From the NCBI GenBank assembly GCA_003193925.1, contig PSPG01000001.1:128001-192000 (forward strand): 64,000 nucleotides of DNA. The letters run 5' to 3'. Source of the stretch: Candidatus Thalassarchaeum betae (lineage in GTDB: Archaea > Thermoplasmatota > Poseidoniia > Poseidoniales > Thalassarchaeaceae). The notes under the pieces were generated by a model that saw only the letters and a program-made list of their open reading frames with translations, ran no database searches and was not told where the DNA came from. This document shows positions 18,101 through 19,700 of the stretch, in pieces. The translations under genes and the position numbers were made by a program. Numbering within the stretch: the first letter of the stretch is position 1; each line of letters starts with the position of its first letter.

Positions 18101-18379
18101 TCAACTGAAATGTTCGCTAAACTCTCCCTCACTCATCGCTTGCAGGGCATCCTTCGGAGTCATGCCCTCCACGTGCACTCGCATCGAGACGCAGGTGCCC
18201 ATCACCTCGCGGCACCGAGCGTACAGGTCAGCACCGGTCAGACGGTCCTTCTGATCCTCTGCGATTTCCTTGACTTGATCCATGGTCAGATTCTCCGAAG
18301 CCTCCTCCCAGGAGCCGTTGCAAGTCTTCTGCCCCAGCATCTGAATCACCTTGTGCGGTGTTTCGTTACGTGCAGACAT
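18101..18379 (-). CDS. rpl11: 50S ribosomal protein uL11, C-terminal domain only (92 aa)
   Basis: NLTMDQVKEIA...EVMGTCVSMRVHVEG; SD GGAGG; canonical position between spt5 and rpl1. Confidence 0.82.
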   Translation of the reverse strand: MSARNETPHKVIQMLGQKTCNGSWEEASENLTMDQVKEIAEDQKDRLTGADLYARCREVMGTCVSMRVHVEGMTPKDALQAMSEGEFSEHFS

Positions 18380-18465
18380 TCGTGATAGCCTCCTGTAAGT
18401 GCGCCCCGCCGACCTGCTTTCCATATTTGAGAGTGATGCAACGCCCGCAGGGCGTGCTTCTAGGG

Positions 18466-19332
18466 CTACTCCACGCGCTGAGTCACTCGAACCTGATCGG
18501 CGCGCACGGTCAGAGCCACAGGAACAGCGGCCTCAAAGAGCTCGACCGTGACTTCCTCCTTGGATTCGGTGACCCGTGTCACGCGAGCAGCCTGGCCGCG
18601 GAAAGCACCACCGTGGATCTCCACGATGCAGCCTTCCTCGATGCCGGCGGTGGCCGCCTTCGGCTCGAGGTACGGCAGGACGTCACCTAGAGGCGACTCG
18701 CCATCGAGCACCTTGCGGCAGTTCTTCATCGGCGTAGTGGACACTCCTACGCGCCCGATGAGCTTCTCGACATGGTGCAAAGCGGAGGCCTCGACGAAGA
18801 TGTAGCCGCGCATGAAGTGCGGGCTCAGGACTCCGAAGATCTGGTCTTGGATCTCCTTGAGCGAGCCGGTCCCAGAGAGTCTTGCGCGGATCTCCTTGGC
18901 GACGTTCTGCTCCTGGCCGATCGAGGTCTTGAGGATGTAGAGGAACGAGGCGACATCGCCATACATCTCACGGAGCTGCGGGGTAGCGTACTTCTTGTCT
19001 TGAATGCTGCCGGGGTCGACCCACTCGAATGCCGTGTACAGGCCTCGCGGATCGACTTCCTCGGCAGAGCTGGCGAATAGCACCGGGGTGACCTCGTTGA
19101 GGCGGTTGCCGAAGGCGAGGCCGCGAGCCTCGCCCGAGCGGACGAACTCCAGATTCTCGGCATCTATTCCGGTGACTTCGGTGATTCTGGCGGTGACGGC
19201 GTCCGCATCTTCCGGGTCGCCGACGCCGTAGATGCCATCCCAAGCCCCGGGGAAGTCTGCAACCCCGTCTGCTCGCTGCATCAGCAGGACCCTCTCCCCG
19301 TTGCGGATGAAGACAGTGAACGCGTCCGACAT
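18466..19332 (-). CDS. spt5: Transcription elongation factor Spt5/NusG with N-terminal Nudix-like domain
   Basis: NGN (KTSIGQE, RGYIFVEA) and KOW (VEIHGGAFRGQAARV) in the C-terminal ~160 aa; between secE and rpl11. Confidence 0.9.
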   Translation of the reverse strand: MSDAFTVFIRNGERVLLMQRADGVADFPGAWDGIYGVGDPEDADAVTARITEVTGIDAENLEFVRSGEARGLAFGNRLNEVTPVLFASSAEEVDPRGLYTAFEWVDPGSIQDKKYATPQLREMYGDVASFLYILKTSIGQEQNVAKEIRARLSGTGSLKEIQDQIFGVLSPHFMRGYIFVEASALHHVEKLIGRVGVSTTPMKNCRKVLDGESPLGDVLPYLEPKAATAGIEEGCIVEIHGGAFRGQAARVTRVTESKEEVTVELFEAAVPVALTVRADQVRVTQRVE

Positions 19333-19341
19333 GTACCCACC

Positions 19342-19608
19342 TCATGTGCCGGTGAGCCAACCGAAGAAGGACGGGAAGGCGCTGTCCATCAGCCACAGTA
19401 TCACAAATCCAATGGCGCCGAGGATGAACATCCCGATACCGCAGACTATCACGGTCTGGCGGAACTCCTGCTTCGTTGGCTTCCTAGCCATCTTGAGGAT
19501 TCGGGCGTAGGATCCGGTCTGGAGGCTTCGAACGCGTCCCTCGATCTCGTCCTGCCAGCCCTGCACGGTCTCTTCGATCGGACCGACATTGGAACTCTCG
19601 ATAGCCAT
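19342..19608 (-). CDS. secE: Protein translocase SecE/Sec61 gamma
   Basis: RILKMARKPTKQEF followed by a TM helix with GAIGF. Confidence 0.9.
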   Translation of the reverse strand: MAIESSNVGPIEETVQGWQDEIEGRVRSLQTGSYARILKMARKPTKQEFRQTVIVCGIGMFILGAIGFVILWLMDSAFPSFFGWLTGT

Positions 19609-19700
19609 GACTAACCCTCGAAGCGACCCGGCGACCGACAGACCCCATTTAAGCACGCCGGGCGAGCCCTAAGGGGCTCGAAATCCATTGTCGACCTCAT

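Follow-up and report, generated by a model that had tools for sequence, protein, structure and literature searches.

A Nudix-fold domain with an eroded catalytic box is fused to Spt5 across the marine archaeal order Poseidoniales

The stretch of 64,000 nucleotides analysed here (the window; contig PSPG01000001.1 of assembly GCA_003193925.1, forward-strand positions 128,001 to 192,000, from Candidatus Thalassarchaeum betae) carries the genes ftsZ, secE, spt5, L11, L1 and L10 in this order, all on the minus strand. The spt5 gene encodes a protein in which an archaeal Spt5 is preceded by a domain that has the fold of Nudix hydrolases and an eroded catalytic box. Such a fusion, placed in a secE-spt5-L11 locus, had been proposed from the letters of the DNA, without database searches (hereafter the sequence-only reading), and both neighbouring genes were confirmed by open reading frames (ORFs) and Pfam. 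The features of the locus, in window coordinates, are as follows.

18466..19332, minus strand: gene for the fusion of a Nudix-like domain with Spt5; one ORF with an ATG start, 288 residues plus stop.
18949..19332, minus strand: N-terminal Nudix-fold domain (residues 1-128), a putative pseudo-enzyme; from an AlphaFold2 (AF2) model, VIA, Foldseek and phmmer.
19165..19227, minus strand: remnant of the Nudix box (residues 36-56); from an alignment of 33 fused Spt5 proteins and 105 Nudix homologs.
18754..18942, minus strand: NGN domain (residues 131-193); PF03439, E 2.6e-10, 40.5 bits.
18541..18627, minus strand: KOW motif (residues 236-264); PF00467, 19.2 bits; the region is also covered by TIGR00405 and by Spt5 structural matches.
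19337..19343, minus strand: Shine-Dalgarno-like GAGGTGG, 4 nt 5' of the fusion ATG, overlapping the secE stop codon.
19342..19656, minus strand: secE, the upstream neighbour; PF00584, E 1.8e-6.
18101..18424, minus strand: uL11 gene, the downstream neighbour, C-terminal domain only; PF00298 is the sole match.

Residues ~130-288 of the fusion protein are a complete archaeal NGN-KOW Spt5, with ~128 residues ahead of NGN, much as the sequence-only reading had it (about 125 extra residues). The NCBIfam equivalog model for Spt5, TIGR00405, matched residues 132-286 over profile positions 1-142 of 145 (108.3 bits, cut-off 69.95), and the Pfam Spt5-NGN model exceeded its cut-off of 22.4 bits with the score given above. 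The KOW match stayed slightly below its cut-off of 22.3 bits; the same motif scores above it in a relative (P0133, 26.4 bits) and is precomputed for another (P0049). When the C-terminal part was compared with the PDB by Foldseek, archaeal Spt5 structures were returned at E values from 1.8e-13 (P. furiosus 3p8b_B) to 2.8e-11.

The fusion protein gave the one Spt5 match in the source genome, and a single above-cut-off match was found in each of five other Poseidoniales genomes (5/5), two of which are single-contig. With one Spt5 per genome, the idea that the fusion is a specialised paralogue working beside a normal Spt5 was rejected. A second candidate, in which the Nudix domain replaces Spt4, was also rejected, as Spt4 is still encoded in the source genome (PF06093, 45.8 bits). 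The Spt4 gene itself (72 residues; contig C16, locus L077, 1492..1710, minus strand) follows directly on an Rpo7-like ORF and precedes a small ORF with an acidic tail, in what looks like an ordinary arrangement. Near-identical proteins in the databases bear source names of Candidatus Thalassarchaeum or Poseidoniales and a plain product label, Spt5 or NusG; their precomputed Pfam annotation is NGN only, with KOW added in 1/120 (among 120 matches listed). The fusion is thus also of importance for annotation.

The fold of the N-terminal domain (N-domain) was examined in an AF2 model built on 33 fused sequences. At full length the model reached a mean predicted local distance difference test score (pLDDT) of 81.8 and a predicted template modelling score of 0.60; in blocks along the N-domain, pLDDT was 86-95 up to residue 100 and 81-85 from residue 101 to 130. 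The VIA structure search placed NudI (6dt3_B) on top, with Z 16.0 and a root-mean-square deviation (rmsd) of 2.3 Å for 127 aligned residues (model residues 1-131), and all 50 matches listed are Nudix-fold proteins (Z 13.8-16.0), almost all of them spanning model residues 1 to ~130. Foldseek against the PDB likewise returned Nudix structures for the N-terminal part at E 5e-8 to 1e-6 (3n77_A at 5e-8), and 3grn_B matched it with a target template modelling score of 0.76 and an rmsd of 2.5 Å. The sequence-only reading had called the fold Nudix and had reckoned with the chance that it is something else; the AF2 model with Foldseek, and a VIA search in which all matches listed are Nudix folds, speak for the former and against the latter.

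Homology could also be detected at the level of sequence. With the first 130 residues as query, phmmer returned 161 proteins with E<=1e-3 from 1.84 billion representatives, and the closest sequence relatives are Nudix proteins, with E values reaching 1e-11 (1.3e-11 to 1e-3) and ~30-37% identity. Fifteen of the non-Spt5 matches were scanned and proved to be stand-alone Nudix proteins of ~130-140 residues, multi-Nudix proteins, or proteins joining Nudix to IF-2B. Pfam NUDIX (PF00293) matches 14 of the 15, one of them (P0173) at 19.2 bits, below the cut-off; the exception, P0253, has IF-2B only and no NUDIX match. Similarly, 27 of the 30 matches in a language-model look-up with the N-domain carry PF00293. 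The fusion protein itself gave no Pfam NUDIX match at E<=1, nor did the genome-wide scan place one here; no Pfam model recognises the first ~128 residues at E<=1, and no PDB chain matched the N-domain sequence significantly (best E 0.16, to an unrelated flagellin). We conclude that the N-domain descends from a Nudix hydrolase and keeps the Nudix fold.

Membership of the type 1 isopentenyl-diphosphate (IPP) isomerases was considered and rejected, with scores of 21.8 for NF002995 (cut-off 127) and 21.4 for TIGR02150 (cut-off 105.8). Such weak scores probably reflect superfamily-level resemblance or noise, IPP isomerase itself being a Nudix-fold protein. Among the relatives in the representative library, P0133 (385 residues) is a divergent fused Spt5 with ~85 further N-terminal residues before the dead Nudix domain; this extra N-terminus contains a C-x2-C-x12-H-x4-H pattern, like that of a C2H2 zinc finger.

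To describe the state of the catalytic box, the 33 fused Spt5 proteins were aligned with 105 of 113 candidate Nudix homologs, eight having been dropped with matches of fewer than 90 query residues. In Nudix enzymes, the glutamates of the box (GX5EX7REUXEEXGU) hold the catalytic metals, and the E16 site holds metals and diphosphate. The box falls at residues 36-56, where the sequence-only reading had seen it in an eroded state, and in the source protein R15 of the box corresponds to A48, E16 to R49, E19 to E52 and E20 to V53. Box E16 is Arg in 32/33 fused Spt5 proteins and Glu in 98/105 homologs. At E20, Cys, Ala, Ser or Val is found in 33/33, never an acidic residue (Glu in 100/105 homologs). 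A Glu downstream of the box, present in 100/105 homologs, and a conserved His, present in 85/105, are each found in 0/33 fused proteins; R15 is variable among them, and the loop bearing box E7 is shortened throughout one family. The earlier statement that the RE pair and the last Glu of the box are gone thus stands for R15, E16 and E20, with the addition that E19 is mostly kept: it is Glu in 26, Asp in 5 and Gln in 2 of the fused proteins, and Glu in 101/105 homologs.

Other positions have become fixed in the fused proteins. D32 is found in 33/33 as compared to 4/105 homologs, R70 in 30/33 as compared to 3/105, and D106 in 33/33 as compared to 19/105; Y99 is present in 33/33, and R49 and G71 are also fixed in fused Spt5 and mostly absent from homologs. 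R10 and R20 are invariant in the fused proteins and occur in active Nudix homologs too, and L16, R20, W31, G36, T54-G55, P83, W104 and P107 are fold-core residues common to both groups. This pattern appears to be that of a pseudo-enzyme with a newly conserved surface, rather than that of a decaying relic. Since the metal-binding glutamates of the box are lost, the N-domain is most unlikely to be a Nudix pyrophosphohydrolase of the classical kind. The fusion protein belongs to the Spt5 family, and its fold and ancestry also place it in the Nudix superfamily; it lacks the box of an active Nudix hydrolase.

We considered that the N-domain might still be an enzyme, using the non-canonical acids D32, D39, E52 and D106 and taking a nucleotide or RNA at the polymerase as its substrate, for example in the removal of a non-canonical 5' cap or the local sanitising of a damaged nucleoside triphosphate. 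The invariance of D32 and D106, both rare in homologs, would fit such an activity, as would an acidic residue at the E52 position in 31/33. The structural neighbours include RNA pyrophosphohydrolases (BdRppH 3ffu_B, Z 14.1 by VIA; RppH by Foldseek) and 4nfx_H (Z 14.6), the title of which says 'atypical hydrolysis mechanism'. However, box E16 is replaced by Arg in all fused proteins except one, box E20 is acidic in none and the downstream Glu is lost in all 33, and the lost glutamates are those that hold the catalytic metals in Nudix enzymes. The E52 position is Gln in 2/33, the divergent P0133 also having Gln at its E19 position, and the E7 loop is shortened in a whole family. We therefore regard a retained catalytic activity as unlikely.

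The distribution of the N-domain was determined among sampled Poseidoniales genomes. It was found in 197 of 201, in frames of ~290-320 residues, and in all three families (98/99, 2/2 and 96/99 genomes) and 23/24 genera. All of the genomes that are at least 90% complete have it (61/61), and the four without a match are 81-86% complete. The survey that the sequence-only reading had called for, across Poseidoniales and Thermoplasmatota, thus gives an order-wide fusion in Poseidoniales, and its other concern, that relatives encode two separate genes and that the fusion is a private stop-loss or an assembly error, is contradicted by the same count.

These data bear on the possibility that the long ORF is an artefact of annotation or assembly, in which two genes were merged or the real start is internal, near residue 123. 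A Met at position 123, just before NGN, is indeed present in 27/33 sequences, and in one genome (G095, locus L063) the gene seems to lie in two frames. That sole apparent split, however, coincides with two runs of N between the matching pieces, by which it is explained, and we rejected it as a real two-gene state; the remaining 52 of 53 Poseidoniales loci read have a single uninterrupted ORF over both parts, and frames of the full length recur across the order. Position 123 is Leu in 6/33, and a Shine-Dalgarno-like motif lies within 16 nt 5' of the same first ATG in 28/33 related loci. In-frame purifying selection on the N-domain (below) and an RNA-library contig that spans the junction, for which DNA carry-over is possible, also argue against an artefact. 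We consider this explanation largely refuted and highly improbable.

Between the two main families, N-domain identity averages 43%, compared to 60% for NGN-KOW (18 x 12 sequences). In one unsaturated close pair, the ratio of non-synonymous to synonymous substitution rates was 0.17 in the N-domain as against 0.03 in NGN-KOW. These results show that the N-domain is under purifying selection, evolving faster than the core factor yet clearly constrained. Four RNA-library runs yielded contigs over parts of the gene; one of these contigs (18775-19010) crosses the Nudix/NGN junction and another (19265-19605) the secE/spt5 boundary, DNA carry-over being possible for all of them. The region ~18386-18721 is essentially uncovered in the four runs, one run being thin in the first bin (18386-18441). 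The contigs lend weak support to expression across the junction.

The origin of the fusion can be placed by comparison with the sister group within the class, Marine Group III (MGIII). There, ftsZ, secE, spt5 and L11 follow one another as in the window, and Spt5 is a plain protein of 187 residues that starts with a short acidic tail and lacks any Nudix part. When 300 other genomes of the phylum were searched, the N-domain matched only weakly outside Poseidoniales (best E 9.9e-14), and the matches came from stand-alone proteins of ~130-180 residues or from other fusions, such as AcnX-swivel with Nudix; no Spt5 was found in the nine non-Poseidoniales Nudix loci scanned. Most Poseidoniales genomes gave only one match to the N-domain query, in the source genome the fusion itself, and a free copy of this Nudix family was not detectable in Poseidoniales with that query. 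The fusion is best explained as an event in the common ancestor of Poseidoniales (Marine Group II), retained from then on. In the simplest history, a stand-alone Nudix gene was captured by spt5 on the Poseidoniales stem and catalysis was lost afterwards. An MGIII stand-alone Nudix gene lying beside spt5 was tried as a precursor and rejected, as in the two loci concerned it adjoins L10e and a DEAD-box helicase.

The genomic setting of the stand-alone relatives was also inspected. In 10/25 loci (6/6 and 4/4 of two families; L040, L043, L080-L084 and L093-L095), a Nudix gene of ~133 codons follows directly on a ~600-residue PIN-ATPase-KH gene of the same strand, with an overlap or a gap of a few bases. 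In a third family, a PurQ-like amidotransferase adjoins the Nudix gene in 3/4 loci scanned and thymidylate kinase (Tmk) is near it in 2/4; PurP and Nep1 occur near the gene in one locus, L040. Such neighbours point loosely to nucleotide or RNA metabolism; they are mixed and single out no clear ligand. As a separate observation, three loci of other Thermoplasmatota (L036, L037 and L041) encode proteins of 265-328 residues in which an aconitase-X swivel domain (PF01989) is combined with an intact Nudix domain of the closest family. AcnX-type proteins presumably act in the archaeal mevalonate pathway, and this combination may be a metabolic fusion.

The gene downstream of spt5 is itself unusual. 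The uL11 gene encodes the C-terminal, rRNA-binding domain only, the likely product being ~92 residues from the second Met, and when it is aligned with the 156-residue L11 of MGIII, its start falls on the linker between the two domains. A search for Pfam L11_N (PF03946) gave matches in 0/69 Poseidoniales genomes that are at least 90% complete and, in a sample of the phylum, in 0/39 Poseidoniales as opposed to 111/112 other genomes, with 14/14 control genomes positive. The missing half is the factor-binding one. A literature search for loss of the uL11 N-terminal domain in Poseidoniales found no description of it. The loss falls on the branch to which the Nudix-Spt5 fusion is also mapped, and the two genes concerned are adjacent. 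In 20/20 further Poseidoniales loci, secE lies directly upstream of spt5, and in 17 of these the order spt5-L11-L1 follows; the other three (L045, L048 and L051, all Poseidoniaceae) have no L11 gene within ~2 kb downstream of spt5, and their operon may be broken after spt5.

We propose that the dead Nudix domain, fixed to NGN in the only Spt5, is a non-catalytic module for ligand binding or sensing, and we assign this reading a probability of about 0.6. The remodelled pocket would bind a phosphate-bearing ligand without hydrolysing it and in a metal-free manner. Because Arg replaces box E16, the site of metals and diphosphate, in 32/33 fused proteins, a direct, metal-free contact with a phosphate ligand is the favoured mode. 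As the ligand we envisage a metabolite derived from nucleotides, or else the end or strand of a nucleic acid, and the N-domain would ride the elongation complex next to NGN, above the cleft, so that ligand occupancy or a recruited partner could modulate elongation. We infer that catalysis is lacking, that a ligand is bound, that this ligand bears phosphate and that RNA polymerase is affected.

The AF2 model gives an indication of how the two parts are joined. The last Nudix helix (residues 120-127) enters the first NGN strand (130-136) through a connection of two residues, and Y124 and G125 at this junction are invariant, which suggests that in the predicted structure the attachment to NGN is fixed rather than floppy. 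As described in PMC3094117, NGN closes the active-centre cleft beside the upstream DNA and the non-template strand, and KOW lies above the RNA exit tunnel. With the N-domain on the N-terminus of NGN, and NGN at the cleft, the N-domain is therefore likelier to lie near DNA than near the RNA exit. This geometry weighs slightly against a handling of nascent 5' ends, which the sequence-only reading had suggested, as an alternative to the sensing of nucleotides, in loose parallel to the recruitment of capping enzymes by eukaryotic Spt5; we retain that parallel as an analogy only.

The same conserved junction could be read differently, with the N-domain as a protein-protein or structural module that binds no small molecule and serves on RNA polymerase as a docking surface, for example for a further factor of transcription, repair or translation, or as a stabiliser of NGN. 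Besides Y124 and G125, the new invariant residues R70-G71, Y99 and D106-P107-G108 may lie outside the old active site, and the lineage has also remodelled a neighbouring expression component, uL11. Yet the most striking substitutions are at the former metal/diphosphate site (R49 for E16) and are more typical of a remodelled ligand pocket; the gene neighbourhood suggests no partner, and Spt4, being present, has not been replaced by the N-domain. A complex prediction of the N-domain with NGN-KOW and Spt4 (score 0.00, mark 0.32) makes no call on docking either way. A role of this kind seems to us improbable, if somewhat less so than a surviving enzymatic one.

Several observations weigh against the ligand-binding proposal itself. 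D32 and D106 (33/33 each) and E52 (26/33, with Asp in 5) are still acidic, and together D32, E52 and D106 could form a non-canonical metal site with residual or altered catalysis. The remodelled pocket is deduced from the Nudix-box alignment together with secondary structure. P0121, a metagenomic fragment of the fused family, scores 24.4 bits with Pfam NUDIX, above the cut-off of 21.1, and its box is degenerate as well. The N-domain evolves ~5x faster than NGN-KOW at non-synonymous sites, and synonymous divergence was near or beyond saturation in 11/12 pairs, the estimate of selection consisting of one pair and the conservation pattern. Finally, the closest active relatives, the substrates of which are uncharacterised, give no pointer to the ligand.

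In a more far-reaching form of the ligand-binding proposal, the pseudo-Nudix domain would make Spt5 a metabolite-gated switch, by which a nucleotide-derived signal retunes elongation genome-wide; ADP-ribose or compounds related to nicotinamide adenine dinucleotide, phosphoribosyl pyrophosphate, or a dinucleoside polyphosphate are examples of candidate signals. We hold this form to be doubtful. Bolder still, the gain of the N-domain and the loss of half of uL11 would be one rewiring of the coordination of transcription and translation.

No description of a Nudix-Spt5 or Nudix-NusG fusion was found in literature searches, though supplementary tables might list such architectures. On Poseidoniales Spt5, the literature found was limited to a marker-gene list, and a search for Marine Group II with Nudix led to an unrelated putative Nudix gene. 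Archaeal Spt5 is regarded as a minimal NGN-KOW protein, and the conservation of an additional domain on the sole Spt5 of an entire order implies that elongation receives, throughout this lineage, an input not known from model archaea. Dead Nudix domains are classic scaffolds for ligand sensors, and the fusion is a concrete, expressible candidate for the control of a general elongation factor by a small molecule or a nucleic acid. According to the title of PMC6741140, Marine Group II is the commonest group of planktonic archaea in the surface ocean; the fusion alters the one transcription factor that is universally conserved, in a marine lineage of great abundance.

How the fusion protein stands to known systems can be seen from both of its parts. 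With canonical archaeal Spt5 (P. furiosus 3p8b_B, M. jannaschii 4zn1/4zn3, T. kodakarensis 9bct_G) it shares the TIGR00405 and structure matches, the position after secE, the single copy and an Spt4 encoded in the genome, but the canonical protein, with NGN and one KOW, is without the ~128-residue Nudix-fold domain. The closest Nudix relatives, from Thermoplasmatota and other archaea (box W-x-G-V-S-G ... E-E-T-G), have the fold-core residues in common with the N-domain; unlike it, they possess the full Nudix box, are matched by Pfam NUDIX and are not joined to Spt5. Lineage-specific additions to the NGN-KOW core are known from the acidic N-terminal region of eukaryotic Spt5 (as given in PMC3094117) and from bacterial NusG with an inserted domain (Thermotoga maritima NusG 2lq8, which is in the Foldseek list). 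These additions, however, are acidic and unstructured or consist of an unrelated inserted domain, and have no Nudix fold.

Among the structural neighbours found by VIA are several Nudix folds devoted to non-catalytic recognition, namely NrtR (3gz8_A, with ADP-ribose), AraR (5bs6_D) and the C-terminal domain of MutY. The latter, in MutY and MUTYH, is a Nudix fold without hydrolase activity that reads 8-oxoguanine in DNA. It resembles the N-domain in structure only (Z 14.0-14.2) and differs in being joined to a glycosylase and not to a polymerase factor. In NrtR-type regulators, which are among the best structural matches, a degenerate Nudix domain binds an effector and is tied to the control of transcription, as in Shewanella NrtR (3gz8/3gz5, Z 15.3/13.8) and Bacteroides AraR (5bs6, Z 14.2). 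The Nudix domain of NrtR is non-catalytic and senses ADP-ribose, the title of entry 3gz8 saying only 'complexed with ADP ribose'. NrtR is a gene-specific bacterial repressor that combines this domain with a C-terminal winged-helix DNA-binding domain, whereas the C-terminal part of the fusion protein is NGN-KOW and its Pfam scan revealed no DNA-binding domain family. We propose, by analogy, that the fusion may work like the NrtR-type regulators without being a member of that group.

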